A stretch of 64,000 nt of DNA from Mytilus trossulus (taxonomy: Eukaryota), in assembly GCF_036588685.1 (NCBI RefSeq), contig NC_086382.1, positions 32,798,001-32,862,000 on the forward strand. The letters run 5' to 3'. The notes beneath the pieces were generated by a model. That model did no database searches. It saw nothing but the letters and a program-made list of their open reading frames with translations, and was not told where the DNA came from. The position numbers and the translations under genes were made by a program. This document shows positions 8,003 to 64,000 of the stretch, piece after piece (the first letter of the stretch is position 1; every line of letters begins with the position of its first letter).

Positions 8003-9644
8003 GGCTATGTGGACTGTTGATGATTTGAAACTTGATATTGTTTTACCTATTTTCACCTTTTTGTATATAAAGTTTCTCTTTATTTTTCAGATATACAAAT
8101 ATAAAGGAGATAAAGTAAAACTATGATTGCCATTTAGACAAATATATCCACCAAAAAAATAAAGTGGGTGTAGGACTGTCTCAGTACTGGAGGTTACATG
8201 TTGCGATTCAGATAATTTGTCGTTGGGTTATTATGTCATTTACGTAAATCAAACATTTTCCTTATAAATATGTTTTGTCTCATCATGGTCTCATAGAAAT
8301 GATTTCACTGTTGTTCAAATGCAAAGCAATTATTATTTTTGTAATATCAGAACCTAGTATCATATATATACTTGCCAAACAAGGTGTCCAAATTGTGAAC
8401 TTGTTATAAAAAATAAATTTTAAACTGGGGGCACGTGGGTACTTTTTTGTTTAAAACCGTGTGTGTTTTTTTATCATTTGTCCTTTGAATTTTCGAGATT
8501 AACTATGTACAACATTATCTTATATCTAATCTGATATTAAGATTCCATATTTTTGGTTAAATCTCTCGTGTAAACTGCAGGGGACGGGATTAAAGCTACA
8601 GGGGACGGGATTAAAGCCGCGATAAGTTTATTTAAACATTACATACTGTTAAATAATGTTTAAAATCAGCATGAATGTTCCTCTTTCATTAATCAAATAG
8701 CTGGATGATAGCACAGCTGGGTGGTTCCTGTTTCAATTCACACCATTACAGTCCTTTTATAGTTAATTCAAATACAAAATAATAATGATATTGCATATTT
8801 TTATGACGCGAGTGAATAAAGCAAGCATGCAATGCCTTTTCGGGATGCCCCATTATATCATAAATGTTTTTCTTTTTAAGTTTATAGTTCCATTTTAAGG
8901 ATTTTAAAATTCATTAGATGTGTACTGCAAATATGCTCATTTTATTTCGCTGACAAAAACGAGCGGAACAGCAGCAGAGTTTCTAACCAGTTGTCACCAT
9001 GTTATTGTCAATTAAGGAAATATTCCTCCGAAAAAATACATATTCTCACAAAAGTTGTTTTTAACGTAACTGTTATTCAGTTTGATAGTTATGATCGGTC
9101 AATGCAATTTACACGTAAATAACCTCTCGAATGTTTTTAATTTTAGTCAAATAAATATTTATGACTGAGACATTTCAGCAGCATACTAAGAATAAATGTT
9201 GGCACTCCTACCACATCTTAATTCTTATATCTATTATATCTGCTTTAAAAAAAATGTTTTAAAGTTAAATCATACATGTAAGATAGAGATAGAGATAATG
9301 TTGATGGCCAATCAAGTTACTAGTATGCTTTCAATTAATAATAACATTATAAACAAATCAGACAATAAAATAATTAAATTTAAATGGTTCATTTGAATAA
9401 TAATTGAATGGATTATACATGTTTTTGTACTGAGGACATGTCCAACTAGATTTGAACAAAGAGAGATAACTCCACATCTTTTTTACATTTCAGATGCGGG
9501 TGGTTTTATTTAGCAATGACTCCCAAATGTGCTGTAAGATCTGGGGTTGAAGTCATAAAACTTTGCTCAGTGCTCTGAGCACAACAATCATGCTCGAAAC
9601 ATGAAATTCAGCATTTTGATTGGTTGATTTTGGAGTAGGAGTAA

Positions 9645-12430
9645 AAAAAACTGTTAAGTTGCCTGGTGTTTCATGTAATGGCGACAAGGTACAGGTACAT
9701 GGACTTGATATAGTAGAAGGTAAGATCGATAGTGATAAAATCTCAGTTTTGAGAGATACAGGTTGTTCTACTGTATTTGTTCATAGTAGGTTTACTAACC
9801 CAGATTGTCTTACAGGTCAGACTAGAGACATATGTTTAGCAGATGGTTCAGTGAAGCAGTGTCCAGAAGTATGTATTAATATTTCTACTCCTTATATTTC
9901 AGGTGATATTATTGCATTGATCTTAGATACACCGTTTGCAGATCTGATTGTTGGAAACTATGTGAACACATCAGTACCACATAGTGTCGATGGTTTATCA
10001 GTGACTAGTGGAGAAGATATTTTTGTTTCAGGTGACTCAGTCCCATGTCATGCAGTTGAGACTCGATCTCGAAAGAAGAAGCAGGATGAAGCAGATATTA
10101 TGATTGATCAGACGAATGTTCAGCGTAGTAGCGATATACCTATATCTCATTCTATAGATTTTTCAGACGTATGCCATGATTTTAAGATTTGTGATAGGAA
10201 GCAGTTGATTGAGTTACAGAAGACAGATGAGACTTTGGATAAGGTAAAATCTTATGTAAGTGATGTGCATGATAACCCAGCATCTTATTTTATATATAAT
10301 TCAGATTTACTATATAGAGTGTATACTAAGCCAAGTGGTGAAGTTATTCAGCAAATTGTATTACCAAGCAAGTTGAGAGGAACAGTTCTTTCGTTGGGAC
10401 ATGATATTCCGTTGGCAGGTCACCTTGGGAATAAGAAAACAAGAGACAGAATCATGCAGCACTTTTTCTGGCCAGGTATATTTAATGATATTGCCGAATA
10501 CTGTAGGTCTTGTCCAGATTGTCAGATAGGTACATCGAAGGGTAGAGTACCACGTGCTCCATTGATTAGCATACCACCTATGGATGAGCCATTTCAGCGC
10601 ATTGCTATTGATTTTGTTGGCCCTTTGCCTATGACTGATGACAAAAACCGTTATGTACTTGTTTGCGTCGATTATTCCACTAAATATCCAGAAGCAATTC
10701 CTTTAAAAGACCAAGAAGCTTCTACAGTCGCTAATGCTCTTATAAGTTTATTTTCTAGAGTTGGCATACCCAGGGAGCTGTTGACAGACCAAGGCAGTAA
10801 CTTTATGTCAGAGCTGATGGTTGAGGTATGTAGACTATTAAAGATAAGTAAGTTACGCACTAGTCCTTATCATGCTATGTGTAATGGACTCTGTGAAAAG
10901 TTTAACGGTGTACTGAAGAAAATGTTGAAGGCATATGCACGACAGACACCAAAAACATGGGATGCATATATCCCCTACTTATTATTTGCATATCGGGAGG
11001 TACCAAATGAGAGTACTGGTTTCTCACCGTTTGAATTGTTATATGGCAGGCACATTAGAGGACCTCTAGCAGTACTTAAAGAAGAGTGGGAAGAGCCTAG
11101 TACATGTCAAAACTCTGTGTTGAGTTATTTATTAGACACTAGAGAAAAGTTGAGAACAATGGCTGAGTACGCCATTGAAAATGAAACAAAAGCGAAACAA
11201 AGACAGAAGTTTTATTATGATAGAAAAGCTAGAGACAGAAAGATTGAAGTTGGTCAAAAGGTGCTTATATTATTGCCTACACATACATCAAAGCTGTTAG
11301 CGAGTTGGAAAGGACCATTTATAGTGACTGATAAAGTTAGTCCTGTTGACTATAAGGTCAAGGTTAGAGGAAAAGACAAAGTATTTCATGTAAATATGTT
11401 GAAGTTATGGCATGAGCGGGTAGATAATGATCTTGATAATAATGTCACAACAGATATTGCTGCGTGCTTAAATGTAATTTCAGGTCTTAACACAGATGAA
11501 GGCACAGATGATAGTGAGATGACTACAGATATAACTCCAGTGTTGAAAAGCAAAGAAAATGTAGATGACGTTACGATCTCACCAGAATTGACAACTGTCG
11601 AAAAACAGCAGCTTAAAGAATTATTATCAGAATATGAAGACATCTTTAGTGACGTACCTAAGGTAACAAATATTATAGAACATAGAGTAGTTACAAAAAC
11701 AGATGAACCGATTTACCAACGTCCGTACCCACTACCATACGCACTTAGAGATAAGGTCAGAGAAGAGATTGACAATATGTTAGCTGCAGGTATAGTTGAG
11801 CCGTCTGACAGTCCGTATGCAGCTCCGATAGTACTGATCAAGAAAAAAGACAACACACTTAGATTTTGTGCCGATTATCGTTCCTTGAACAAACAGACTA
11901 TCTTCGACCCGATTTTTATGCCACGCATGGATGAGGTACTGAATAAAGTCAGCAGAGCACGATATATCAGTAAACTTGATTTAACTAAGGGCTATTGACA
12001 GGTACCACTTGATAAAGATAGCCGACAGAAGAGCGCATTTATAACGCCGTTCGGACATTATCAGTTTACTGTTACTCCATTTGGTATGATGAACTCAGGT
12101 GCTACTTTTGTTCGTATGATGGATAAAGTTCTGGCAGGATACGAGGAATTTGCTGACTCGTTCATTGATGATATTGGTATATTTAGCGATACATGGGAGT
12201 ACCATATTGAGCATTTAAGGGCAGTATTCGATTCACTGAGACAGGCAAACCTCGTTGCAAAACCGAGTAAGTGTTTATTTGGCTACGATGAGCTTGAGTT
12301 TTTAGGACATATTGCCGGCGGTGGCAAGATTAAGCCTGTTCAGGACAAGGTATCTGCTATACATGAATTTCCAGTGCCTGTCACGAAGAAACAGGTGAGA
12401 TCATTTCTCGGTCTGATAGGTTTCTACAAA
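9645..12430 (+). pseudogene. Truncated Gypsy LTR-retrotransposon pol, Gmr1-like order (protease - integrase - reverse transcriptase)
   Basis: Protease LRDTGCS; integrase HHCC (GHDIPLAGH...CPDC), DDE (AIDFVGP, LTDQGSNF, NGLCEKFN) and GPF; then RT (PYAAPIVLIKKKD, RFCADYRSLN, SKLDLTKGY*QVPL, FIDDIGIFS). A single nonsense codon at 11996-11998 (TGG>TGA) with the frame continuing. No gag, RNase H or LTRs seen. Confidence 0.92.
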
Positions 12431-13957
12431 GTTTTCTTCTCGAAAGTTTTATGACTTCAAGACCTTATATCAAATTTAATATAAGTTTTACAACCCTATT
12501 ATATTCGTTAACTTAGTCCCTCACCATAAAAAATCTTTTCTGAAGAAAGCTTGGTGAAATTATTATAGATATGTTTTTTATTCAGATCATTGGTGAATGA
12601 CTTTATACAATTTTCATAATAGATATAGAAAGATGTGGTATGAGTGCCAAATGAGACAACTCTCCAAGTCACATTGAATTAAAGAAAAACATTAAAAGTC
12701 AAACTAAGGGCTATAAAGGACCACACAAATTAATAGTGTAAACTCATCATTCTAACGAGAAAACCCAAGATGAAATCTGTATGAAAAAAAAACAAGAAAT
12801 GAGAAACAAATATGAACATCATATTCTTGTCTTAGGAAAGTTGCAAACAATGTCAGCTGGTGTCAACGTTTAAATGGTACCAAACCTTCACCCTTATCTG
12901 AAGCAAAAGTATAACATCATATACATAAATCACTTGATTTGCTGTATGTTCTTAACTTATTTCCATCTTTAGCTCATTATCATTATTTAGTTCTTCATGT
13001 AAAAGACCTATAAATTATATATAAAATGAAGACTCGAGATAGTTTACAGTTAACAGATTGTATAGACACTTCACACGTCTATTGTGTTGTGAACAGTATG
13101 TTGACCTCTAGAGGCCCTTCTAGGTTTGAAAGCACCGTTGGATTGCTGTCTCATTGACGTTTACACTCAACATCCTTTTTGATATTGTTTTTACCTCTCT
13201 AAAGGTTCTAATCTTTATTCAAGCGTCATGTCTATCAATGAAATCCCCGATTCCAAAATAACTAAACCATGAAAATGAGGTCAAGGTCAGATCATACCTG
13301 CCAGTTGGAAATGTACACCTTACAATACTTCCATACACTAAATATAGTAGACCTATTGTTTAAAATATCTGAAATATGGGCTTAACCTAGTTCACTGATC
13401 CATGCGCTGATATGGTTTTTCGAGGTCGGGGTCAAATGAAAACTGTCTGACATGAACGTTGACTCTGTAAGGTACGCACATACCAAACGCAGTTATCCAA
13501 TAACTCATAATAAGAGGGAAATATTACTACTATCTTTTTTATATATTTATATATATTCTCGTTATGTAGTCTAATAAGCGAAAAATAAAAACAATAAATG
13601 ACAGAAGAACAACCAATATTGACATGTTGAGAAAATAACGGAAAATTAAAATAGTCGCCCTCATAAAAACAGAGTATTATAATTGATATCAATAAAATTT
13701 CTTTGAGAAAATGAAATTAAATAAAGGTAAATAAATAAATAAATACAATAAAAAAAAACATGAAGCCATGTCCCATTTATGTATACCACTTATCAAAAGA
13801 TGTAGATATACGAATAGGAAATAAGATAAGAAATGCACTTCATAAAGTTATTAAATATAAGTATTATTAGTTGCACAGTGTGCGCTATTGAATTTTAAAT
13901 ACGATATATATGGGTCAGTAAATTCCATATGGGTGAGAGCAAACTATACTTATACAG

Positions 13958-14124
13958 TGACTCAACCAATCAATAAAGACATTTAAAATACTTTTTAAAT
14001 ATACCAAAAAAATCGGGTATTTCCACTGTCACCTTACCACAAACAAGCTTCCTGTTTATACCAGACAGATGTAGAGCGTACAAAAGTTTGATGTTGTTTA
14101 AAACGTAACCGGTATATGGTAAGT
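13958..14124 (+). promoter_or_regulatory. Candidate inducible promoter and non-coding first exon of the TIR-DD-CARD gene
   Basis: AP-1 TGACTCA at 13958, CCAAT at 13966, kappaB-like GGGTATTTCC at 14015, ETS CTTCCTGT at 14048 and a GTAAGT donor at 14119. Confidence 0.45.
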
Positions 14125-15565
14125 ATAAAACTCACATGTATGTATAATTTAAAATTTATATGTGGAGCATGATCGGCATTCTGCCTACCCTTCCGGAGCA
14201 CCTGAGCATACCCACATTTTTTGGTGGGGTTCGTGTGTCTTTAGTTTTTTGTATTGAGTCTTGTGTACTATAATTTGTAAGTTCGTCAGTATGTCAGTTT
14301 ATTTTCGATCTATCAGTTTGGATGTCCCTCTGGTATCTTTCGCCCGTCTTCTTTAATAAAAGAACATGTAGAGTGTTGCTTTGAAAAGCAATATCATGGC
14401 TTCTGGTATATCGATTGAAGATAACAAACTTTAATATTATCATGGATTGATCTCTTAGACCCTGCTTGGCTCAGTGTATCAAAACTATAAACTAAAACAG
14501 ATGCTGGTCTGCCCCTTCACCTATATTATCACACTGTTAATATACAAAAATAAGATGAGGTCATAGTGGTGTGATTGTCAAAGATACAACTCTTCACAAG
14601 AAACTAAATGACACAGAAATTAACAACCATAGTTCACCGAAATCCCATACCGCATAGTTTGCTATAACGACTGTTCGAAATGCCAATTGTAAAACAGTTC
14701 AAACGAGAAAAGTAACTAAATTTATGTACAAGATAAATGGAACAAAAACAAATATGCAACACAGCATAAAATGACAACCACTGGGTAACAGGCCTATTTA
14801 TAAACTTCCTGCGTCAAAACAATCAACACAAAAAATCCAACACGATAATATTCAAAGATGTCCTGTTTTTTTTACTTTTGTGGACAAAAGATGTATACAA
14901 AAGTAGATTTAACAGGAAGTGATTACAAGAACTTATACTTGTATACATCGACCTTCATCCGAATCGGTGAAGATATTTAAATACTTGTTTATATAGATAA
15001 ATAAAAATCAGGGTTTCCCAGTGTCATGTAAACATAAATACATACAAAAACTTCCTGTTTGCATGGAGTTGGAGAGCCATTAATTTAATGAGATGCTGTT
15101 CACAATAGATATAATGCAAAAGGAAAATCTAGATTCGTATAGGTTTACGACACAAAACTTAGATAAAATACAATCCTACTTAACTTTTGTAACTCTTATA
15201 TTAACTTTCGAAATTGCATCTTGTAAATGACCGTATAATGTATGTGAACAAAATGTTTGTTTGCTTGTGTTTAAGCGTTATGTTATATATATTTACGGAC
15301 TTTATAATTTGAGGATGCCAGAGTAAATGATGGGACCTTCAACCTTTGCTAGGAAAAAAAGGGGCCTGGGCTGCAAATTGCCAATGCTTTTCATTTAAGA
15401 TAGAACTTGCAACAATAGAGTTGACATTCTAGTATACTAACTGTAGATAAACCACCAATAGTAGACTAGTCAATATGTCACTTAGGGTCGGAGAACAATT
15501 GCGCTTTGCTAATACGGTATTTTAAAAGATATGTTCCCATTTCCTTTTAGATTTAATGACATTAA

Positions 15566-15980
15566 ATGGTAATGGACGTAAGCGGTAACTTTACCATTTA
15601 TTTGTCTGACGGTGGAGATGAAGACGAAAGAAATAAATCGAAACGAGTCATCGAACGCTTGGAAGATTCTAATATTGGAATTATATACGGAGACAGAGAT
15701 TTTATACCCGGATGTATGATACTAGACAACAAAAGAAATGCGGTTCTAAAGTCAGACTTAGTGGTGGTACTTTTGTCCGATAGCTATATAGACTCGACTG
15801 AATGTGTTTATGATGTTGCTTTGGCAATTTGTCTGGAAAGACACATTATCATAATAGACAAAAGAAAAACAAGAAAGATGCCGCCATTATTAAATGAATT
15901 GCCAAAGATAAATGGACGTACAAACTTTGTCAAAGTGTTACAGAAGCTGAAAAGAATGGTTGATGGGTATTATGTAGAAG
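15566..15980 (+). CDS. TIR-CC-DD-CARD-CaaX gene, coding exon 1: TIR domain
   Basis: Box 1-like FTIYLSD, BB loop GDRDFIPG, VVVLLSDSYIDSTECVYDV. Acceptor TTTTAG| at 15550, in-frame TAA upstream of the ATG, phase-1 donor G|GTTAGT. Confidence 0.85.
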
Positions 15981-16708
15981 GTTAGTTCTGTTTTAGAGTT
16001 GTACCTTTTATAAAAAGACTGTTTCAATTCCGAAAGGTTTTGTATGGAAAGCTGTTCTCGTCAAAAATATGATGAGGCCAATTTTCGAGGGGAAAAAAAT
16101 ACATTTAGATTTTTGTCTTTCCATGGTTTTGTTTATGCTTTTTTTAATTATTCATCATTATATGCGACGATTTTGCTAGGACTGGATTTGGATTACTTTT
16201 GTTTATTTTTATGTCTTGTTGAAAAACGCTTTTATTTTTGAATGGTATAAAATACACCTAATCGATATTTGGTACCATCCGAAACAAATGCCCAGTAATT
16301 AAGACAACTTCCTGTTTGGGTCAACCATTGTAACAACAAAAGTCATCAGTATCAAGCTAAGGAAAGAAAATGGTTAAAAAGCAGACATTTTGAAAAACTT
16401 TGATAGATTATGATCCACTTTAAAAAAAAAATGAAAAAAAAAAATGATGCTTTACAAATATTTGTTTTATATATATAAAAAAAAAAGAAAGGTTTATGCG
16501 TAATACATTGTTTAAACTTGTCCCAAGATAGATGTTAACTGGATGTAAAAGTTGTGTAATTTCTGATCTTTTTCGGATTGGAGTAAAAAGCAATATGGTG
16601 TATTAGTTTAAATTCTTCGTATACTTTATATCGGCATGAAATATTTGCAACTGAACGTTAAGTATAGAAACCAGCAATCAATCCTATATTTTGTTTGAAT
16701 ATTTACAG

Positions 16709-17013
16709 AAAAAAATCAATCAAGGAATAGGAAAGACGATGCACAGATATATATCAGGGAAGTGGAACGAACAGCTACTTTAGAAAATGAACAAGGATTT
16801 CAAAAACAGATTCTTAGACTACAGGCTCAAATAACGCATACCCAAAGAGACAAGAAAATAGCAAAACACATTGCGATTGTAGATGGAAATAACGACTTTG
16901 ACAACTTTCACCATGAACAAACAATTAGATACCAGTTGGAGAAAAGGATAAGAGAAATGGAGAACCATATACAAAAACTCAGAAGAGAAAACGTTTTGCT
17001 AAAGCATCCAGTG
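16709..17013 (+). CDS. TIR-CC-DD-CARD-CaaX gene, coding exon 2: predicted coiled coil
   Basis: Acceptor TTTACAG| (phase 1) and donor GTG|GTAAGT (phase 0). Heptad-like segments FQKQILRLQAQI and LEKRIREMENHIQKLRREN. Confidence 0.78.
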
Positions 17014-17446
17014 GTAAGTTCGCAACATAGGCACTGTCACAGAATAAAAACTTGTATTTCATAATAATTTCAGAGACAAGTGCCTGATTCGCAAGTTTTC
17101 TTTCGTAGTTTCTTATGTTAGACATGGAAATATGTCATAACTTTGTTTGCCTTCTTTTACATCAATTACAATATTCTCTGGGGCAGTATGGCGATTAAAA
17201 GAATGACAAATAAAAACAGCGTGTTCATTTGAATTCCATATAATTACATTATATGTATTTTTCATTATAATACGTCATTCTGATTGGCTAACAGTACATC
17301 ACGTGTTATTCCTTAAGCAATTGCATCACTCAATAAAACTTTACATTCATGATAACACGTGGTTCCACAAAAAAAGTGCACAGGTGAATTAAATTAAAAA
17401 AATATAAAATTCGTGTTTTTATGATCATAGCTAAAAAATGTAATTA

Positions 17447-17604
17447 TAAGTATTGAATGCTTCTTTTTGTAACTTCATAGGGTTGTAAAAGCGTGACCGT
17501 GCGTACATTTTTAGAATGATGCGCTTCAGCGCTTCATGCAAAATGTACTTCGGTCAACGTTTTTACACCCCAATAAAGTTACAAAAAGAAGCATTCAATG
17601 CTTA
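17447..17604. repeat. Long imperfect hairpin at the end of a non-autonomous element (~17255-17604), intronic
   Basis: TAAGTATTGAATGCTTCTTTTTGTAACTT... is mirrored by ...AAGTTACAAAAAGAAGCATTCAATGCTTA. Confidence 0.75.
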
Positions 17605-17778
17605 AATGAATAATGATACAAAATAAAATATGGGGTTTACATAAATCATATCAGACTGATATTAAAGGGAAGTAACTCAACGAACATAAATCAAAGTACG
17701 TAAAGTACTATATATATAAGAACACTGTTTGATACAAAAAAAAGACACTAGTTTAAAAGAATTTTATTTTACGTCAAG

Positions 17779-17968
17779 GTTTCTGTTAGTCCAATGGATG
17801 ATAGACCTTCACAGCAAACTCCATTTCAAGAAATTCAAAAGCAGATAAACCAGGTTTTGATTGAAATATCAAATCTGAGTCATAATAATGAAGACAGCCT
17901 GGATACTACAAGCTACAGAATTCCGTCTGAATTGAGATCATTTTGTCAAAAATATGAGGAAATGATTG
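17779..17968 (+). CDS. TIR-CC-DD-CARD-CaaX gene, coding exon 3: linker and first helix of the death domain
   Basis: Acceptor TCAAG| (phase 0) and donor G|GTATGT (phase 1); frame matches both neighbours. Confidence 0.72.
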
Positions 17969-18403
17969 GTATGTATATACATTTGTTAACCGTTAGTGGC
18001 CTGAGGGGACGACCATTTATTTTTTTTGTGCCCTGGGGAGGGGAGGGAAGGTAGAATGATTTTGTAAATGAATGTTTGGCCTGTTAAGAATGAAATAGAT
18101 AAAAATAGATAACCAATGGAAGATTTAGAAAAAAAAGTCCGAGTCACTTAAGTTTAGAAGTTTTATTTGAGATGCCATGGTGATGGCGTTAACATGTTAC
18201 AAAATGTGAAATATGACTGATTGAAATCTTTCAAAATAGGTGAAAATTTGTATAGAAAGCACGTATAATCTCCGAAAAGAGTTCTTTGTTTTGTCTTTCA
18301 ATCTGACATCAAATCTTCAATTTTAAATTCATTGATTTAAAAAAAAACCAACACCTATATATATCTTATAATAAATTTGATTTGAATGAACTTTTTCACC
18401 CAG

Positions 18404-18598
18404 GTCCAAATATTTGCCGACTGGGAAGAATTCTTCATTTATCAAACCATCAGATCGATAAAGTAGAAGAGTGCAGGGAGTATGGTTATGTTGAAATGTT
18501 TTGGCAGACGATAAAGTTTTGGCAGTCAAACGAAAGCTCTGATGAAAGCTTTGTGACGTTACTGAATGCATTAGAAGACATTGGTGTTGATATAGGAG
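18404..18598 (+). CDS. TIR-CC-DD-CARD-CaaX gene, coding exon 4: death domain
   Basis: GPNICRLGRILHLSNHQIDKVEE...EMFWQTIKFW...SFVTLLNALEDIG fits the death-domain pattern. Phase 1-1 exon (CCCAG| ... G|GTAAAC). Confidence 0.8.
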
Positions 18599-19110
18599 GT
18601 AAACTTTAATACTATATGAATTACTGAAGCTGCGCGGGAACGCAAAAAAAGACTACGCTTATGTACTTTTGCATAAAAAGTTCAACAATAAAAAATATAG
18701 TTTATAGTACTTTTAAATCAATCAATGATGAAAGAAATTTGAAAGAAATATAGTAAACTCTACAAGGTTAGAGATGAGTGTAAAAATTTCAAACACGTTT
18801 AATAATATCAGATCATTACATGACATTTTTCATATCAAATGTATTATCAGCCCTATGTTCAACATCATCTTAAGAGCCGCATAGCTCGAGGGCTGATAAT
18901 ACATGCGATGTGAAAAATTACATGTTATGATTTTTTTATGTTATGCTTCAACAATGGAGAAAAATAACAGATTCATATATTGATCCTTTTATGTGGTTCC
19001 AAAATAGAAGTTCAAAGATTGAAAAGTTCCCGGACGTCGGACCCCAAATTAAAAGCTTAACAACTTTTTCAGAAATTAAATAATATACACGACTCTTTGA
19101 TATGATTTAG

Positions 19111-19383
19111 GGAAGCCAATGTCAAAGACAGAAGTGAGAATACTCCAGGAGAAGATTCCATTCATATTGAACAATATTTACCAAGTAAATGATTTGATAC
19201 CATACCTGATATCTCAGCACGTGTTAACGCACGTGACTGAGATGTTTATCAGAGAACCTAGGAATAAAGAGGAAAGACTATTGCGTTTAATCAACGTTCT
19301 CACAACAAAACACTATGGAATTAAGGCCCTCTGTAATGCCCTTATCCATACAAATCAGGAATTTATAGCAGACGAGATATCAC
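19111..19383 (+). CDS. TIR-CC-DD-CARD-CaaX gene, coding exon 5: CARD
   Basis: ILQEKIPFILNNI.QVNDLIPYLISQHVLT...IREPRNKEERLLRLINVL...ALCNALIHTNQEFIADEI fits the CARD pattern. Phase 1-1 exon (TTTAG| ... C|GTGAGT). Confidence 0.83.
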
Positions 19384-19900: not shown

Positions 19901-20181
19901 GTTCTATGCCAAATATACCAACAAGCCGTTTCCCTGTTGAATTAACTGATGAAAGCTGCGATTCTCAATGGAGTTCAGATGAATCTAAATTACAAGTGGC
20001 ACGTGTTGCACCAATCACCGCTACAGTTAATTCGGTAACACCAAATGTGCACCTTGAACAAAAACATCAAGGTCAGAATGAAGACTTAAGTAACACATGT
20101 GTTGATGGAATTCAGCAATTAATCAAGAAAGACTCTAAGGAAAAAACTGTAAAATCCCGTAGGGGTTGTAGTATTCAATAG
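19901..20181 (+). CDS. TIR-CC-DD-CARD-CaaX gene, last coding exon: low-complexity tail ending in a basic patch and CaaX box
   Basis: Acceptor TTCTTGTAG| (phase 1). Ends KKDSKEKTVKSRRGCSIQ*. AATAAA at 20684. Confidence 0.78.
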
Positions 20182-23036
20182 TACAAGTCCCCGTCACGAA
20201 TTAATAGTGTGCATAGTAGTCAAAATATACCGCCGTAGACATTTCCTTAACAGTAACAATATAATTCAATACCGTTTATAGTACAAATGTACAAATATAT
20301 AGTAACTGTAGTCAGATGGCTCATTGAGGTCTTGCATGTTATAGTGCAAATTTGGACACTTGAGAAAATGTGACTAGGACTAAATATTTTATATATACAT
20401 TTGTAGTTATGCATTTTGAAATTTTCCCAATGACCATGAATAAGACTGTGAAGATCAGATACCGTACTTCACATAAAACAGATCACGACAGTCGAAATAT
20501 ACAACACTTATATATCAAGAAAGGATAAAAAAAACTTTAAAAAATTAGTATGAAGTAAAAGTTTCAGTTGCAAATTAATACATAAATGTTATTTTTTTGT
20601 ACATGATATATTTTTCTGTAAATTATTATGTGCTGTTATTGTAATTTTTACTTGACTGTTGTTTTGTTTTGCGGGTTACCGTGAATAAAGATAAAGTTAT
20701 TATATAAAAATAAGGTATATTTATATATTTATTAAATATGAGTGTTTATGAATCAGATACAATCCGATGATGCAGATGCGAAATATTAGGGTTAAAAATA
20801 TGGAATGTTTGTTATAGAGGGTAAAAAGAAAGAGGGATCTGGGAATTAAGAAAGGGAAAAGTGGGCAGTACTGTATATTTACGACTTAATTCACGGCCTA
20901 GCTTTTCTGGCAAAACAGCCTTTGAACGTCATTGCCATCTCTGACTATTTCGACTTGAGAGTTTGAAAGGTCCTTTTGTCAGTCCTCTTTCGGCTCCCCT
21001 TGCATGTAAGTTCGGCTACAGCGAAGAACTATGCGAAACTATTTTCGCCGGGTAGCTTATATTTATAAACATTTCTTTAAAGTAAAATGTCACAATCACT
21101 ATTATTAACCAGCTGGCGTCTCAAAGGTATTCAACAATTGACCCCAAATCTTAAAAAAAATAACCTTAAAGAAGTGACAGTTGTGGGTACGATAGTAAAC
21201 ATCATACACGAGTCTATGGATTTATGATTATTGCCAATTTCACATAAGATTATTACACTTTAAAAGAAATCATTGGTCACTAAAACTGATATTACACACT
21301 TGACTCGATTTCACTTCCCTTTTTAAAAAAAAGTTCAAGTATTAAAATAGTGAATCGAGTGTAAGTAAATATAAAGTAACCATACCCAACTATATCAGTC
21401 CTATTCAGGACCGGTAACTCTGTCGATAGATATTATAGGGTATACAATATTGTTAAACCAGATCATACGTCTCTGCTGGAATTTGTACAATAACTCTTTT
21501 TTTAACACAATTTAAACTTTATATCGATTCATTGCCTGGATTTAGCTTTAAATATTGAATTAAAAGATAAATAACAATAAAATCATATTCAATGTTCGAA
21601 ATTCATTTAAATTAAAATTTGAATCAGTATATTTCTTTGAAATAATTATAGAAACATATAAATATTTGAATGCCTTTTAAGCAAAACATATTTTTTTAAA
21701 GAAATTTTCATAATATTAATATTCTCCTAAAGTTTATTATGAACCATTCGTCTTCTGATTTGACACGGGAAGGAGAAGATATTTATTTGTACATTTATGA
21801 AAACTTTTGTATATCACAAAATTTAAACTCTGGTAATACAAGTATACACACTGACAGGATGTTGAATGTCACCTGATTGCTTTTGGTTTGCACGTCTACC
21901 TGACAATATATTATGATGTAACATTTAACCCAAGATAGATTTCACCTGTCCGGCCAAGGAATGTAAAGGTATAGAATATTTATCTTTTGTAATTGGACAT
22001 CTTTTTTTTTCTCTTAGGATAATTTTATTTTTGTTCTTAAAGGAATGTATAATATATTTCTAAAGAAAAAGAAAATATACAGATAACTTTAAAACATTTT
22101 TAAAAAAAGATGAGATTTTTTTTTATTATAGATATTGTAAACTTTCTGGTAATAGTATCTCCTGGATGAATATCTGTCAAAATAAATGTTCCCGTGTCAC
22201 ACTTAAAATATTTTTTTTTTATTAAGAAATTTTGAAATCTTTGATATCGAAATATCACTAAAGGAAAATAACAGAAACATCGGCGATTTTTTTATGAATA
22301 ATTATTTATAATCTAGGAAAGTCTTACTTAGAAAATTCCACTCATTGATTTGATGCAACATTTCAATATGATACATCAGCCGCCATTTTGGAAAATCTCG
22401 GAAAATTCCCCATTTTAAATCGATGTTTGACCGAATTTGCCCTGAAATTAAACTGTTTTAAGTAGTATTTTTCGCCAGCTATATGTTTGAATATACTTGA
22501 TCGATTTGCAAAGTTTGTGTTTTATTTACAGAATTTCTTTATTTGTTGTAAAAGTAGACATGGGTATCGGTAATTTAGCATTGAGTCAACGGAGAAATGA
22601 CGAGAAAAAGTGCATGTTTTACGATGTCGATTTGACCGAAGTTAATCAAAAATTAAACTGTTAGGACCAACATTGTTTGATAGAAATATGTTTGAATATC
22701 AAGGATTGATTTGCAAAAGTAAGAAAACGGATCAGGTTTATGAGAAAATTAAACTTTATTGAAGCATATATGCATTTTATATGGGGAAATATAATACAAA
22801 ATGGCGGATATTATACGTCACAAAAGTCACGTGATGTCTAACTTAGTTGGATATGTTTGTCCTACTGTTTATTTCTTTATGATGTTGTATAATTTATAAA
22901 ATTGGTACACCTACCGTGTTGATTTATATTTACGCTTTATGTGGGTGTCATAGAACAAATATTGGTCTCTTCTGCATGTTCCTGTTCTTAAATATAAGTC
23001 GCAAGGAAACCCAACGTATACTCCAGGTCAAACGAT

Positions 23037-27018: not shown

Positions 27019-27507
27019 TTACTCAAGGTATAACATGTAGCAAGTTGCCACGATCACACTATCCCCAAGTGGCACAGTCACAGATGTGTGTGTGTCTGTA
27101 GAGTTATTCCATAAACATCTACTTCCAACAGAAATTGTAGCATTTTCTTGAACAATAGTCACGTGCACTATTATTCTAAATCGACTGTTAAAATACTCCG
27201 CTTTGATTCGTTGTCTTATGGCATCACTCAGTCGCGTGCAGAGAAAACCACGCCCCTCTTTATCTAAGAAATCTTCCTCCTCTCCGACAACCACCTCCAA
27301 TATGGTATTGTTCATGATACTATTGACAATTGTGGTTGCGATAGTGTCATCCGGTGCCATTCTGTATGTATTCTCATAACGAATTTTAGGTTCTTCGCTC
27401 GTTTCAGTTCGGCTACTGTCATCATCTCTCTTAAAGATGTGAGGAGACTTGATAACGTTTCTAACTAAATTAGAAAATCGACTAAGTCTTGGGAGACTCG
27501 TTTCCAT
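27019..27507 (-). CDS. Tctex1-domain protein (dynein light chain Tctex-type), paralogue 1, single coding exon
   Basis: IRYENTYRMAP ... RFRIIVHVTIVQ ... VGSRCLWNNSTD ... ATCYMLYLE. Confidence 0.9.
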   Translation of the reverse strand: METSLPRLSRFSNLVRNVIKSPHIFKRDDDSSRTETSEEPKIRYENTYRMAPDDTIATTIVNSIMNNTILEVVVGEEEDFLDKEGRGFLCTRLSDAIRQRIKAEYFNSRFRIIVHVTIVQENATISVGSRCLWNNSTDTHTSVTVPLGDSVIVATCYMLYLE

Positions 27508-28396
27508 TTTGTCTTGTTAAGATATACTCGCATAATGTACTTGGGTTAAACGTACCAAGTAATTAACGATTAACAGGCAATTAAATCTTTTGTTTTTAGT
27601 GTGAAAGTTTAATGATTCAAAAGATAGAACAGTGACAAGTCAACCCATGAATTTAGTTTGTGTTTCGTTACTTTATAGAAAACAATAAAAACTCGTATTT
27701 GACAATAGACCATGCATGAATGAACAGAAAACATGTTTTCTTCTGGAGTGGCAAATATAAAAGACGTTTTTTTGTAATAATGTATGTTTGGGTACAAAAA
27801 GGGGGTCCATACCCTAAGCGATTAAGCTAAATAATGCATGTCTCATCTGACATAAACGTGTGTTTGCTTGGTAACGTGGTAATGGCTTAATCCATTTAAT
27901 CTTATTAACTGCTGATGAAGCATGTTTTAATATTGACAAGAAGAATGACACATTTTAAATGAAAGATTTATTATCCAAATAACATGCCGATTGTACCACA
28001 CATTACATGTTACAAACTATTTGGTAATTTAGTATCGTTTTAGTTTATCCGATTATATAATATATTTGTTTTAAAAAAAACTTGCAGGGTCTATGAATAA
28101 AATAAATGTTTTACCCCCACAAAAAGGTTAATAAAGTCATCGTATAAATTTTCAAGTTTAGCTATTACGTGCAAAATGGACCAACTCACATTTTGAAAGC
28201 ACTGTTGCACAATGGAGTTTTTTTTATTCAGTATATATATTCCGGACCATATGAGTATTTGGACCATACGCGTATGGTCATGACCATATGCGTATACTCA
28301 TATGGTCGGACCATATGAGTATATACTTGTATGGTTATTAACGGGCCGGACCATATGAGTATTTTGACCATATAGGTATTTTTTTTATGAAGTAAA

Positions 28397-29962
28397 ATGG
28401 CGTCCGATGTGAATGGACGTACATGTAAGACGACAGGTGTTGATTTGTCTGATACAAGTATTATGTCTGATGTAGGAGCTGATAAAAGTGGTAACGTAGA
28501 TTCCTTTTACAATATGAATGACACTTTCAAGCAATACTCCCCACAGAATAGTCAGATAGTGCATATATTAACAGAAATCGGCACCCCTGTCCGCCAAAAT
28601 GTAAACAATGACGACTCCATTGTTGATAGTCAAGATTCTCAAGACAGTAGTCAAGGGACACATTTTATACCTAACCAAGATTTTATTGCGATGTTAGACC
28701 TTGAATTGATAGATCTTCCTAGAGACTCATATATTGTAAAATTAATTGAATTAACGAATGATTCTGATGATACTATAACATGGTATAGGAGTATGTTGAC
28801 CAGTCGAGCCAAGTCAATACAGGGGTGTCCTTTAGGGAAATTAATCACGAGGAAAAGTACAAACAGAGGTTCATCCTCTCAAAAGTATGCAAAAGACTGT
28901 TACTTATTACAGCAATTTATTTCTGGCGACCCGTCTAGCATTGATGAAGTTTTTCGTAAGGACGAACCTAAATCTGTAAGCGAACATAACACAGTACCGC
29001 TGAATTGCCATCTCATAGAACTAAAAACAACGCTTCATATGACTATTGATAGGTTGAACGAAGTTGAAAAGTTGGGTAAAGCTAACCGTACAGTGATTGA
29101 AAAATTACAAACTGAGAATGAGAAGTTGAGACGAGAATTAGAAGACTCAAACGAGAGACTGAGTAAGCATATTGTATTCAGCGAACGTAAATACACGCAA
29201 TACGAAGCGAACTTAAAATTATTAAATCAGCAATCAAAAGCAATTGGTGAATTTGATTTTAATATGTATTCAGAAAAAATTAAACAGATAGACAGTGAAC
29301 AAATACGACATAGCAAACTACTTCTAAGTGCACAAAAAAGTTTTAACGAACTAAAAATGTCGTGTCAACAGTCGTACGCAACAAAAGTTAACCCACACAT
29401 TACCCCAGATAACATTCCGGTCAGTTCTACTGATAGTACAACTCAGAGTTATAATTCACGAATGCGATCACCCGAATCGGAGATTTCTAACGGTACAGTT
29501 AAAGAATCACAACAAACACACGAAACACTCCGTACAAATGTCCTTGCAAAAAAAGACGACAGTTATAAAAGTGATGAACCAACGACGTTCAAAATACCTG
29601 TTCGCTTACAGGGTTCCACTGCAGCAGTTCAGTCCACTGATGACAACTTCTTTACTGGTGTTTCACGGAAAAAGTCCGCAAGATATTACTTGTCAGGAAT
29701 TGATTCGAAGTCAACCCGTTCCGGAATTATGACTTATTTAGAGAGTAGAAATGTGCAAGTGACATACCTGAGATTGTTTCAATCGCGAAATAGTTTACGC
29801 TATGTGTCTGCTAAATTGAACGTATCCGAACACTGTGCTGATATTATTGAAGGGGAAAACTTTTGGCCTAGTGGTGTGCATTGTAGGAAGTGGCTTAGTA
29901 ACCAGGCGTGGTATCAACGAAGCTCCGAGGTTCCAAGCGACCCAAAACAAGGCGAAAACTAA
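28397..29962 (+). CDS. LINE ORF1 (coiled coil plus C-terminal RRM-like domain)
   Basis: 521-aa ORF with a central heptad region and the C-terminal YYLSGID...SAKLNV...FWPSGVHCRKW motif typical of LINE ORF1 proteins. Confidence 0.85.
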   Translation: MASDVNGRTCKTTGVDLSDTSIMSDVGADKSGNVDSFYNMNDTFKQYSPQNSQIVHILTEIGTPVRQNVNNDDSIVDSQDSQDSSQGTHFIPNQDFIAMLDLELIDLPRDSYIVKLIELTNDSDDTITWYRSMLTSRAKSIQGCPLGKLITRKSTNRGSSSQKYAKDCYLLQQFISGDPSSIDEVFRKDEPKSVSEHNTVPLNCHLIELKTTLHMTIDRLNEVEKLGKANRTVIEKLQTENEKLRRELEDSNERLSKHIVFSERKYTQYEANLKLLNQQSKAIGEFDFNMYSEKIKQIDSEQIRHSKLLLSAQKSFNELKMSCQQSYATKVNPHITPDNIPVSSTDSTTQSYNSRMRSPESEISNGTVKESQQTHETLRTNVLAKKDDSYKSDEPTTFKIPVRLQGSTAAVQSTDDNFFTGVSRKKSARYYLSGIDSKSTRSGIMTYLESRNVQVTYLRLFQSRNSLRYVSAKLNVSEHCADIIEGENFWPSGVHCRKWLSNQAWYQRSSEVPSDPKQGEN

Positions 29963-29973
29963 AAACTTTCACA

Positions 29974-32900
29974 ATGAAAAGAACTATTATTTCAAATGTT
30001 GTATTATTTCTGAATGTATTACTCATTTTGTTTTTTATGTCTAGTATTAAGTTAGTAGCATGGAACGTCAGGGGTATCATGTCCTCTACTATTTGTCTTA
30101 GTAAACTTGTAAAGGACACTGATTGTGATATATGTGTAATATCTGAACATAAATTGAAAGAAAGGTCTTTACATTATTTATCTACTATAGAAAGAGGGTA
30201 CAACTGTATAAGTAAAGCTGATGCATTACCCATAGGGTATAACGCATATCATGGTAAGGGTGGTATTGCCATATTATACAAAACTTCACTCCAGTTTTCT
30301 GTAAATGAAATAAGTGACATTAACTCCAGTAGAATAGCTGGTATTGAACTTAAAAACCAGTCTTATGGTTCACTTTTTATCTTTGGTGCGTACTTACCAT
30401 CTGATGACTCTATTGAAAATTATAAGAGTGAATTAAATATACTAGATAATTTATATACATACTATAGTGTTTATGGTAATTGTATAATTGCAGGTGATTT
30501 AAATGCTAGCTGCTTAGGTAAAGACAGATCTATGTCAAATAATTATAAATCAAAAGAGTTATTAAAATTTGTATCTAGGCATCATTTGTTGTATGCCGGG
30601 GGTGAAATACAAATAAAAGGGCCAAATTATTCGTATATAACCAAACAAACAATGTTAGATTATATCTTATGCAATGAAAGTATGTATAGAAAACTAAGGT
30701 ACTATGAAATCCTTGATGAAGGGAAGATAAGTAGCACGTCCGATCATTTGCCAGTTGTAGCTGAGTTTGTGATAGACTCAAACCCGCATCGTGTAATGAA
30801 CTCTTGCGACAAGTTACCTGCTTGGCATAAAGTTTCAGATGCGCAGATAAATGAATACAAAAAACTGCTGAATGATCCCGTTGATATGTTGATTGATAAA
30901 ATTAGGTCTTTTTCTTATGTCGATATTGACGCCATCAATGACGAATTCGTTAACATTTTACACACTGCTGCTGACATTGCAATCCCGAAATGCGGTTTTA
31001 ATCCACATACAAAGCCTTACTGGAACGCAGATGTAAAACGAGCACATGACAATGAAAGATCAAAGCGTAGATGTTGGGTACTAGAAGGTCGGCCTCGAGG
31101 CATGCATTTTGACTCTTATCTAATGTACAAAAGGGCCAAGTCCGAGTTTAGACGTGTACAACAATTGGCTAATGAACAGTATATACAGAGTTGTTATGAT
31201 GATCTCAATGAAACTGCCGAATGTGATGTACGTCTGTTTTGGAAACAAATAAAGCGTTTTAAAGGTCGTTCGTCTAAAGTGTATCCCGAGATTGTGTATG
31301 AAAACAAAGTGTATAATACTCCTGAGTCTGTAGCAAACTGTTTCGCCGAATATTTCCATGATATATACCAACCAAAGGATGAGAATAATTTTGACAATGA
31401 CTTTAAATGTTCTATCGAGAGTACATACAATGACATTATTAAAACATGTGGTGTTGAAGGTGAATACTTACCTGGTGGGTTGATAACTGAAAAAGAAGTT
31501 ACTGAATTAATAGGACAGTTAAAGTATAGAAAAGCCGCCGGACATGACAGAGTCCAAAACGAACATTTGCGTCACGGAGGTATCTCTGTTGTGAAGTGTG
31601 TAACTGCTATATTCAATATCATCGTCAAAAAAGGGCGAATACCGCAGGACTGGAAGCTAGGTCTCCTTGTTCCTATCTTCAAAGGTGGAACCAAGTGCAA
31701 GACTTCACCGGATAACTACAGACCAGTCAGTTTACTGTCCTGTATTTTGAAACTATTTGAAAGCGTTATCAAAGCTCGTTTAATAAATTTTGTGCTATTT
31801 GATAAAAACATTCCGAATCTCCAACAGCAAGGATTTCAAAAGTACCTTAGTTGCTTAACAGCATCATTTAACCTACATGAGACTATTTATCATAACCTTG
31901 AATTATTCAGTAAAATATTTGTTGCATTTTTAGATAGTAAAAAAGCTTTCGATACTGTATGGAGAATTGGGTTAATGTATAAATTGTATAATATAGGGGT
32001 AACAGGTAAAATGTGGTCAGTTATAAATGACTGTCATGTTGGTACCATGAGTTCTGTAGTTGTTAACCAATGTCATTCTGATTTTTTTCCTGTATTACAA
32101 GGTGTAAGGCAGGGAGGAGTATTGTCTGGTTTATTATATTTAATATTTATAAACGAAATGTTGGTTGAACTTGAAAAATGTAACCAGAAAACAGGTGTAT
32201 ATCATATAGCCAGTTGCTCTCCTGCTCTCGCTGACGACATTTCATGTATTGGCACAACCCCGTCAGGTTTACAGAGAATGTTAGACACATGTACTGACTA
32301 TGCTAATAGATGGCGTTTTTGCTTCAATGCGAAGAAATCTTGTGTAATGCAATTCTCCCTTAATCCACGAGAAGTTCGGTTACAACACGATTGGCATATT
32401 GCAAACAGTGTTCTCCCGTTAGCAGAGGATTTTACTCACTTGGGTATTGAACTAAACTATAAATTTAGATCGACAGAAAGAACCTCTAACTCATGTAGAA
32501 GAGGCAAAAACTCATTTTTCGCTCTTAACGGTGTATGTCTCAAGTCAGCAAATCCATGCGTTCTACTTAAACTGTATAAATCTATTGTGTTACCTACTGT
32601 ACTGTATGGTTGTGAAATGTGGACTAATTTAAAGTCAAACGATATAGCAACGTTGAATTGTTTTCAGCACTTTATAGTCAAGCGCATTTTAGACTTGAGA
32701 ACTTCCACTAGGTCGGATATGTGTCAAAGTATACTTGGATTGCATCCTATTACTTCAACTATAGAGATAAAGAAGTTATATTTCTTACAAAAACTTTGTA
32801 GCCTTGATGGTAAATTCCTGACGAAAAAACTATTTCTTGTGCGCCTGTACTCTTATTTTATTGACACCGAACGTAAACATTATGGGTTCATTCAAGAAAT

Positions 32901-33489
32901 TATGGATATCTTATATAAATATTATCTTCATGAATATGTGATTATCTTTATGCGAGATGGAGTTTTCCCTTCAAAACAATCTTGGAAAATTATAGTAAAT
33001 AATACGGTAGACAAAGTACAAACTGATGAATGGACTCGTCGAATACAGAGTGACAATAACTTTTCTCGTTTTAGAAATATTCACCTCTCGGTCAAAGTCC
33101 CTGATTTCTGGAAATGCGCTAGATCATCAAGAGAAATCATAAACGCATACTTCATAACAAAATTACTAACTGACATCCCTAACAACACGGGAAGTACTTG
33201 CGAGCTATGTGACAGACCGTTTCTAGATGTGTACGTACATGCGTGTTGTAGTTGTTGTGGTACTCAATCAATCAGAGATGTATGGTGGGATTTCATTATT
33301 GAAAGGTTTCCATTGGAATTATTTGTCGAACTGTATTCATATGATGATGAACAGTTATATTGCATTCTTTTGGGCAAGCACATATCAACAGTAAATATCG
33401 ACACTGACAGTTTTCTTAGTTTGTGCCACGTACACGTTGCACTCTGTGTTGCTGAGTATAGCAGAGTAACGAGAAAGATGATACAGTAG
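29974..33489 (+). CDS. LINE ORF2: APE endonuclease, reverse transcriptase and C-terminal Cys/His motif
   Basis: AWNVRG, ISEH, AGDLNA, SDHLPV; NYRPVSLL, FLDSKKAFDTV, QGGVLSG, LADDI; CELC...H...C. First ATG at 29974; the frame is open from 29902. Confidence 0.93.
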   Translation: MKRTIISNVVLFLNVLLILFFMSSIKLVAWNVRGIMSSTICLSKLVKDTDCDICVISEHKLKERSLHYLSTIERGYNCISKADALPIGYNAYHGKGGIAILYKTSLQFSVNEISDINSSRIAGIELKNQSYGSLFIFGAYLPSDDSIENYKSELNILDNLYTYYSVYGNCIIAGDLNASCLGKDRSMSNNYKSKELLKFVSRHHLLYAGGEIQIKGPNYSYITKQTMLDYILCNESMYRKLRYYEILDEGKISSTSDHLPVVAEFVIDSNPHRVMNSCDKLPAWHKVSDAQINEYKKLLNDPVDMLIDKIRSFSYVDIDAINDEFVNILHTAADIAIPKCGFNPHTKPYWNADVKRAHDNERSKRRCWVLEGRPRGMHFDSYLMYKRAKSEFRRVQQLANEQYIQSCYDDLNETAECDVRLFWKQIKRFKGRSSKVYPEIVYENKVYNTPESVANCFAEYFHDIYQPKDENNFDNDFKCSIESTYNDIIKTCGVEGEYLPGGLITEKEVTELIGQLKYRKAAGHDRVQNEHLRHGGISVVKCVTAIFNIIVKKGRIPQDWKLGLLVPIFKGGTKCKTSPDNYRPVSLLSCILKLFESVIKARLINFVLFDKNIPNLQQQGFQKYLSCLTASFNLHETIYHNLELFSKIFVAFLDSKKAFDTVWRIGLMYKLYNIGVTGKMWSVINDCHVGTMSSVVVNQCHSDFFPVLQGVRQGGVLSGLLYLIFINEMLVELEKCNQKTGVYHIASCSPALADDISCIGTTPSGLQRMLDTCTDYANRWRFCFNAKKSCVMQFSLNPREVRLQHDWHIANSVLPLAEDFTHLGIELNYKFRSTERTSNSCRRGKNSFFALNGVCLKSANPCVLLKLYKSIVLPTVLYGCEMWTNLKSNDIATLNCFQHFIVKRILDLRTSTRSDMCQSILGLHPITSTIEIKKLYFLQKLCSLDGKFLTKKLFLVRLYSYFIDTERKHYGFIQEIMDILYKYYLHEYVIIFMRDGVFPSKQSWKIIVNNTVDKVQTDEWTRRIQSDNNFSRFRNIHLSVKVPDFWKCARSSREIINAYFITKLLTDIPNNTGSTCELCDRPFLDVYVHACCSCCGTQSIRDVWWDFIIERFPLELFVELYSYDDEQLYCILLGKHISTVNIDTDSFLSLCHVHVALCVAEYSRVTRKMIQ

Positions 33490-63700: not shown

Positions 63701-64000
63701 TGCGCTAGGTGTCGAAGGGCGCTATGTTCAAAAATCTGAAACTAGAGCTCAAAATTCGAAAAAAATGTCTAAAAATTGGGGATAGGGTCGGCCTATTCCA
63801 GGACTTCTAGAGAAAAATAATGAGGGGTGTCACGGGGTATGACTATATAGGTCTTGTAGAGGAGAAACAGGTGCTTCTTTTGCGCTAGGTGTCGAAGGGC
63901 GCTATGTTCAAAAATTTGAAACTAGAGCTCAAAATTCGAAAAAAATGTCTAAAAATTGGGGACAGGGTCGGCCTATTCCAGGACTTCTTGAGAAAAATAA
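54769..64000 (+). repeat. Satellite DNA array, ~177-180-bp monomer, about 51 copies, running off the window, with higher-order structure
   Basis: Monomer AAGGGCGCTATGTTCAAAAATCTGAAACTAGAGCTCAAAATT...GGTCGGCCTATTC...GTCACGGGGTATGACTATATAGGTCTTGTAGAGGAGAAACAGG. Rare variants recur at 3576-bp spacing. Confidence 0.98.

Follow-up and report, generated by a model that had tools for sequence, protein, structure and literature searches.

TIR adaptors require a correct membrane position, and the anchors on record for them, in the passages of PMC6901815 that concern anchoring, are phosphoinositide binding, myristoylation and transmembrane helices. A sorting adaptor is described there as a protein that binds an activated receptor and seeds the signalling complex, its location being needed for signalling. 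TIRAP binds PI(4,5)P2 by means of a basic domain at its N-terminus, dMyD88 binds PI(4,5)P2 and is its own sorting adaptor, and TRAM is held by a myristoyl group together with an adjacent basic region; prenylation is mentioned in the same passages merely as a general type of anchor (PMC6901815). The preliminary description of the locus treated here contrasted a prenylated tail with the anchoring of TIRAP and TRAM, and was right about both proteins as these passages present them (PMC6901815).

No natively prenylated TIR adaptor was found in the literature searched, which consisted mostly of titles and abstracts and had most subscription journals outside it, and the same search returned no publication on the gene identifiers of the mussel protein family considered below. 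Neither "prenyl" nor "farnesyl" occurs in the searched portions of a review published in 2026 on the MyD88 family (PMC13564108). Ras and ICMT are described as acting through adaptor TIRs in the accessible part of PMC7291029, and the CAAX sequence in the accessible part of a connexin preprint belongs solely to a reporter plasmid. In mussel and oyster, according to the relevant passages of two surveys, there is no clear TRAM or TRIF, and the surveys put forward uncharacterised TIR proteins in their place (PMC3308963, PMC4346834).

Gene structure and domain architecture

The window, as the whole stretch of 64,000 nucleotides of Mytilus trossulus DNA analysed here is called, holds a gene of six coding exons on the forward strand, whose features are collected in Table 1. 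The spliced frame comprised 552 aa and was identical to XP_063403437.1 (P0002), an uncharacterized protein of M. trossulus (LOC134687233).

Table 1. Features of the gene and of its product in window coordinates
Feature	Position	Strand	Basis and remarks
5' non-coding exon	14046..14118	+	start approximate; donor after 14118
Coding exon 1: ATG 15566, TIR domain aa 9-138	15551..15980	+	joint in 4/4 runs
BB-loop motif RDFIPG, aa 44-49	15695..15712	+	aligns with the TLR2, TLR6, TLR15 motif; present in mussels, not in oyster relatives
Asp83, alphaC position	15812..15814	+	Glu in TLRs and in oyster, Pinctada and chiton relatives
Coding exon 2: long helices, likely coiled coil	16709..17013	+	joints, alignment, model; far shorter in oysters
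Coding exon 3: conserved helix, linker, Death domain start	17779..17968	+	joints, alignment, model
Coding exon 4: Death domain aa 302-364	18404..18598	+	Pfam, joints
Coding exon 5: CARD aa 372-463	19111..19383	+	Pfam, fold matches; 273 nt, phase 1-1
Last exon, coding part: ~90-aa unstructured Ser-rich tail	19901..20181	+	joint 19383->19901 in 4/4 runs
Tail motif LQVARVAP	19990..20013	+	matches K[IVT][AV]x[IV][AST]P of oyster tails; Ser-rich stretch precedes
Basic patch aa 535-547, net +5	20125..20163	+	sequence
CaaX box CSIQ and stop	20167..20181	+	Cys549 = 20167-20169; stop TAG = 20179-20181
3' UTR	20182..20690	+	contig ends 20504-20633; AATAAA at 20684

The exon joints were taken from contigs of sequencing runs whose RNA status is guessed or undefined, so that spliced joints are claimed here and expression is not claimed from the run labels. 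The joints 15980-16709, 17013-17779 and 17968-18404 were found in all four runs and 18598-19111 in three of the four, among the joints listed, and the joint 14117->15550, with GT..AG at cut +1 and a short side of 51-73 letters, in contigs of X1 and X2. The contigs that crossed the last intron (GT..AG, with the acceptor preceding 19901) came from X1, X2, X3 and X24 and extended into the 3' UTR. In a second contig set, letters of the CARD exon preceded 19901 in three of four runs (X3, X17 and X14), and the contig of X9 began within the exon. The preliminary description had named use of a different last exon as something that would overturn its reading of the tail; in these contigs this is not the case, the CARD exon being spliced to the exon of 20122-20181 in both sets. 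In M. edulis and M. galloprovincialis, the annotated isoforms X2 (P0010, P0020, P0007) lack the CARD exon, with the reading frame and the tail preserved, and such a form would retain TIR, Death and the anchor but have no CARD. No CARD-skipping joint was present among the contig joints listed for the M. trossulus locus.

A search of the mussel's own genome revealed no close paralogue: the next-best matches of the TIR were 26-39% identical, the Death exon gave one match, and the CARD exon gave two matches on C14, which belong to a TIR-less subfamily. The region G000:C14:48895749-48920396 carries two copies, ~24 kb apart, of this TIR-less and CaaX-less Death-CARD subfamily, which is shared with scallop. 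Elsewhere in the genome, four short TIR-like exons are clustered at G000:C2:49617706-49668772, which may represent tandemly arranged genes for cytosolic TIR proteins. Within the window itself, long frames at 9620-12454 (+) read by translation like an LTR-retrotransposon pol, in the order protease, integrase, reverse transcriptase, and end ~1.6 kb before the 5' exon; a single-frame Tctex-1 family protein (Pfam E 2e-14) is found at 27019-27516 (-), two long frames of 523 and 1195 aa, LINE-like by translation, at 28391-33489 (+), and a satellite array with a 180-bp unit, 51.6 copies, 93% matches and a strong GC skew at 54782-64000.

From its N-terminus, the protein presents a TIR domain, a coiled coil, a Death domain, a CARD, an unstructured tail, the basic patch and CSIQ. 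Pfam recognised the TIR at aa 9-87 (30.2 bits, cut-off 21.3) and the Death domain at aa 302-364 (25.6 bits, cut-off 22.6), and the CARD at aa 390-459 scored 18.6 bits in the mussel, below the cut-off of 23.9, and 25.6-30 bits in all four oyster proteins. An AlphaFold model built from 34 sequences reached a mean pLDDT of 68.6 (an earlier one from six near-identical sequences gave 36 and was unused); the TIR (pLDDT 84-95, aa 11-140), the Death domain and the CARD were modelled with confidence, TIR and Death being separated by long helices, and aa 465-552 stayed below a pLDDT of 50. When this model was compared with known folds by VIA-align, rows within 1 Z unit being regarded as tied and fold alone showing no function, the TIR matched TIRAP best (Z 17.1, rmsd 2.7 over 134; a second TIRAP row 16.6), followed by Hydra TRR-2 (16.5), MyD88 (15.8), SARM1 (15.2) and TRAM (12.2). 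The CARD matched 4rhw_E, from the Apaf-1/caspase-9 CARD complex, with Z 15.8 and rmsd 1.4 over 92, its other top matches were CED-4 and Dark, and Foldseek agreed with the fold search. The fold rows span aa 6-139 and 372-463, with the Death domain barely tested, and for the latter only weak matches to the FADD DD were obtained (E 0.16-0.9).

These features set the protein beside several described adaptors. TIRAP/MAL gave the top TIR fold match, tied with Hydra TRR-2, but the mussel TIR begins at residue 9 and has no N-terminal phosphoinositide-binding extension; identity with TIRAP/MAL was rejected because that protein has a lone TIR and an N-terminal region, and here Death and CARD follow the TIR. 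MyD88 also unites TIR and Death in a single chain, and its clusters were the nearest by language-model features, although these matches (0.76-0.84, all below 0.9) are leads only. The order TIR-then-Death of the mussel protein is the reverse of the Death-TIR arrangement that PMC4346834 gives, in its relevant part, for oyster MyD88. Moreover, the mussel protein adds a coiled coil, a CARD and a covalent lipid signal, its TIR is 18-20% identical to that of MyD88 in structural alignment, and identity with MyD88, in which Death is N-terminal and TIR C-terminal, was set aside on domain order. With RAIDD/CRADD and FADD it shares tandem death folds, a CARD resembling apoptosome CARDs and a Death domain weakly like that of FADD; RAIDD is arranged CARD-then-DD and FADD DED-then-DD, and neither carries a TIR or a CaaX box. 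Gerdol et al. (2017) reportedly classified invertebrate TIR proteins, ecTIR-DC among them, and that classification may already list the TIR-Death-CARD architecture. The ecTIR-DC proteins resemble the mussel protein as cytosolic TIR proteins of invertebrates for which an adaptor role has been hypothesised, according to passages of PMC6321704 and PMC5549309.

The C-terminal tail and its probable prenylation

Positions 20122-20181 (+) were found to translate to IKKDSKEKTVKSRRGCSIQ followed by the stop codon, which is the C-terminus of the protein; the cysteine is fourth from the true end of the spliced form, as in CaaX proteins. The 20 residues preceding Cys549 contain 7 K/R and 2 D/E, and only 2% of the 20-residue segments of the protein are equally basic, although one contig has K535N. 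Among the stop-ended frames of at least 20 aa in the window, Cys stands at -4 by chance in 87 of 2069, and an end of the form C-x-[ILVM]-[SMQALC] in 7 of 2069, or ~0.3% per frame. No variant was listed by the contigs in 20150-20181, the last 32 coding bases, versus 25 changed positions in 19901-20149, and this lack of variants is not significant on its own. As to other anchors, hydropathy revealed no transmembrane segment (highest 19-residue value 1.45) and there is no Gly2, which was absent in all nine proteins checked.

Two further elements of the tail were considered. The LQVARVAP motif might serve for docking or phosphorylation, and a PxExxD sequence (PVELTD, aa 471), which we take to be a TRAF6-type motif, was set aside, not being kept in oysters.

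Taken as a whole, the tail is built like the two-part anchor of TRAM shifted to the C-terminus. Both TRAM (TICAM2) and the mussel protein are TIR proteins in which a lipid site is combined with a neighbouring basic stretch; however, TRAM has an N-terminal myristoyl group and no death fold, whereas the mussel protein has a C-terminal CaaX box, no Gly2, and both Death and CARD. Identity with TRAM was discarded on account of the missing Gly2 for myristoylation. The resemblance to Ras-family anchors lies in the boxes themselves, since relatives of the mussel protein share the H-Ras box CVLS and the yeast Ras2 box CIIS, and in the basic patches and upstream cysteines; unlike Ras, the protein has no GTPase domain, and its patch is weaker than that of K-Ras4B, whose tail is more strongly basic than net +5.

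Evidence on the competence of these boxes comes from screens and predictors that concern the yeast enzyme. CSIQ belongs to an experimental positive set drawn from the yeast Ras61 and Ydj1 screens, as do CMIS, CVLM and CVLS (PMC9231725, available portions). Its absence from both cleavage sets suggests that the entry for CSIQ came from the Ras screen. In the supplement of the same work, as far as available, all nine tetrapeptides found in the mussel-oyster family were positive by the SVM, PrePS and Freq predictors of prenylation and by the SVM and Freq predictors of cleavage, and FlexPepBind accepted six of the nine, rejecting CVIL, CIIL and CVLM. CSIQ itself was positive for prenylation in 13/13 models and for cleavage in 12/13, cleavage being less sure for CSLS (5/13 models) and CVLS (7/13). 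These calls are to be read against base rates over all Cxxx sequences of 33% (SVM) and 20% (PrePS) predicted to be prenylated, with 37% of SVM positives predicted to be cleaved (PMC9231725). In the Ydj1 screen, as reported in the accessible part of PMC10320760, the enrichment of CSIQ was 1.06 versus 0.49 for the H-Ras box CVLS.

In the mussel genome, three loci matched the prenyltransferase beta-subunit profile, and none of 12 candidates matched the ICMT profile in an exon-by-exon search, a result that is no evidence of absence. Boxes in which X is Gln, Ser or Met are farnesylated, and those in which X is Leu are geranylgeranylated. The earlier reading of the tail as a Ras-like membrane anchor on a TIR adaptor is thus supported in part: CSIQ is yeast-positive for prenylation, predicted to be cleaved and located at a real C-terminus, and plasma-membrane targeting and a TIR sorting-adaptor role are less certain. 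Since the nine boxes are predicted to be prenylated and cleaved, CSIQ is yeast-positive and the chance of such an end is ~0.3% per frame, Cys549 is very likely prenylated in mussel cells. A membrane location that depends on this prenylation is probable, and the chances are evenly balanced between the plasma membrane and inner membranes: endosomes or other membranes are possible because net +5 is modest, one contig has K535N, and the oyster forms have an extra Cys or X=Leu.

Relatives in mussels, oysters and other molluscs

Homologues were collected by scanning 1.84 billion representatives in full, which yielded 45 proteins, and by profile searches, which gave more. In two profile searches (best ~8000 candidates), solely mussel and oyster proteins were among the matches listed. 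Scallop, clam and gastropod orthologues were not among these matches, and the scan of 1.84 billion gave only TIR-less paralogues from scallop, which is weak evidence of absence.

CSIQ was identical in five Mytilus species (M. trossulus, M. edulis, M. galloprovincialis, M. californianus and M. coruscus), which says little because the whole tails are 79-89% identical. The oyster relatives, with the same TIR-Death-CARD order and an overall identity of 25-27% to the mussel protein, keep Cys at -4 and present eight further tetrapeptides: CSLS in the M. gigas/angulata cluster (P0026), CVLS in Saccostrea echinata, CMIS, CILS and CIIS (Crassostrea virginica), CVIL and CIIL (cluster P0087), and CVLM in S. 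cucullata. Thus the cysteine, on whose conservation in orthologues the preliminary description had made its reading depend, is kept from mussels to oysters with a varied aaX (nine tetrapeptides altogether). A Cxxx end was present in 57 of the 64 proteins of at least 240 aa in the TIR-type group, a set of redundant alleles and isoforms from about six lineages (a string filter had given 65, of which the TIR-less paralogue P0034 was dropped). The seven others are P0023, which is partial, P0025 and P0124, which end at the CARD, P0091 and P0092, which end at the tail motif, P0098 and P0030. P0092 (M. gigas model K1Q2N1) is an apparent fusion of two tandem paralogues, both cut at the tail motif, and oysters seem to carry tandem copies with differing CaaX types.

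When representatives of the six lineages were aligned from the C-terminus, Cys at -4 and I/L at -2 were found in 6/6, Lys at -15 in 5/6 and Lys at -17 in 4/6, and, elsewhere among the last 30 residues, no position had a residue common to more than three. The oyster patches have net charges of +2 to +6, and most oyster forms have an extra Cys at -8 or -5. Mussel and oyster tails share 19-26 identical positions of 75-87 aligned. In local alignment of the tails against 500 shuffles, the mussel-oyster score was equalled for P0026 in 0/500, for four others in 4, 14, 17 and 35/500, and for C. virginica in 292/500. Two unspliced oyster frames (P0132 and P0133) are interrupted by inserted sequence in the alignment column that corresponds to the mussel exon 5/6 junction. 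Together, these comparisons weakly suggest that the mussel and oyster tails were inherited rather than convergent.

No Cxxx end was found in any of the eight TIR-less paralogues, nor in the chiton protein P0038 (XP_064612480.1), which has the order TIR-coiled coil-Death-CARD and forms a long branch in the tree. The anchor consequently seems to have been gained later, in a single branch, and the chiton protein suggests that the TIR-Death-CARD architecture would be older than the anchor. In a tree of the Death-CARD region, built from 23 of 34 aligned rows after 11 fragments had been excluded, mussels, Pinctada and oysters formed a clade with support 90/90, unstarred, and the TIR-less Death-CARD subfamily of mussels and scallop separated with support 99/97. 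Both Pinctada models fall inside the mussel-oyster clade and are without CaaX: P0025 stops at the CARD, and P0030 has a long unrelated-looking end, so that in P0030 the anchor may have been lost or the gene model may be wrong.

The domains did not diverge evenly. Between mussels and oysters the Death-CARD part is the best conserved (62-68 identical of ~175), and the TIR is 24% identical; in oyster TIRs the RDFxPG motif of the BB loop is gone, and the Pfam score is under the cut-off or there is no match. Across Mytilus, the TIR is 91-95% identical and the BB loop intact. The S. cucullata model P0029 has the CaaX box (CVLM), Death and CARD, but no TIR.

Possible roles of the protein

The reading that we hold, with slightly better than even confidence, is that of a prenyl-anchored, pre-positioned adaptor that couples TIR receptors with partners bearing Death domains or CARDs. 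Cys549 would be farnesylated, trimmed and methylated, and the lipid and the basic patch would hold the protein at the plasma membrane or endosomes, on their cytosolic side, the flexible 90-residue tail acting as a tether. The TIR of the protein would then join an activated TIR receptor, and Death and CARD would gather downstream partners, such as IRAK-type kinases, an initiator caspase or another CARD protein. A predicted membrane anchor on a TIR-containing, putatively cytosolic protein is one mark of a sorting adaptor that is present here, and the domain content makes a receptor-to-effector role slightly more likely than not. The best TIR fold matches, to TIRs of adaptor and receptor type, agree with this role. 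Against the adaptor reading stand the oyster TIRs without the BB-loop motif and the retention of CaaX without TIR in P0029.

The same observations bear on a second reading, in which the protein is a prenyl-anchored death-fold platform whose Death-CARD core, RAIDD- or FADD-like, recruits an initiator caspase at the membrane, the TIR being accessory and decaying or lost in some lineages. Since P0029 has CaaX, Death and CARD and no TIR, the death folds may be what the anchor primarily serves, and the platform also agrees with the conservation of Death-CARD over TIR between mussels and oysters, with the Apaf-1/caspase-9, CED-4 and Dark matches of the CARD and the weak FADD matches of the Death domain, and with the existence of the TIR-less Death-CARD subfamily. 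Against it, the Mytilus TIRs are 91-95% identical and have an intact BB loop, the annotated isoforms lose the CARD and not the TIR, the TIR-less paralogues lack CaaX throughout, and P0029 may be a truncated model; we regard this reading as unlikely.

Returning to the adaptor, its output could in principle be negative. A membrane-tethered decoy or brake would bind the TIRs of receptors or of MyD88, together with Death-domain kinases, and dampen signalling, a role compatible with a domain order reversed relative to MyD88, with the degenerate BB loop of oysters and with the TIR-only MyD88-like genes of oyster that were proposed as competitors in the relevant part of PMC4346834. Two well-conserved death folds of downstream type nevertheless suit signal output, and a decoy appears distinctly unlikely.

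The alphaC position of Asp83, presumably the catalytic Glu site of enzymatic TIRs, bears on a role as an enzymatic effector, in which NAD+ cleavage by the TIR would be activated by Death/CARD oligomerisation at the membrane. The Glu of the oyster, Pinctada and chiton relatives and the fold match to the SARM1 TIR would fit, but all mussel copies and the related TIR fragments P0027 and P0028 have Asp, and the same Glu occurs in TLR TIRs and is hence not diagnostic; this role is very improbable. Membership of the SARM1-like NADase class was rejected for the mussel protein, as Asp83 takes the place of the catalytic Glu. That the CaaX match is unused, arising by chance or left unmodified, is the most improbable reading, for although the Pinctada models and the chiton relative are without it and the identity of CSIQ within Mytilus counts for little, nine prenylation-competent boxes with a fixed Cys and an aliphatic -2 stand at the end of otherwise divergent tails, and such an end is rare among the frames of the window.

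A wider proposal can be made tentatively, as a possibility with the odds against it: mussels and oysters may have a third positioning route, in which a single prenyl-anchored adaptor would replace TIRAP and TRAM at the membrane and wire TIR receptors to Death-kinase and CARD-caspase branches. Skipping of the CARD exon would turn the death branch off with the anchor kept, and paralogues would tune their location by a farnesyl/geranylgeranyl swap or by palmitoyl sites.

Prenylation would be an unusual anchoring for a TIR adaptor, and the mussel gene is a single-copy candidate for it. The TLR and TIR repertoires of bivalves are greatly expanded and have no clear TRAM or TRIF, and the mussel-oyster family offers a concrete candidate for their stand-in. 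In farmed shellfish, a single polypeptide carrying TIR, Death and CARD could couple receptor signalling to caspases.
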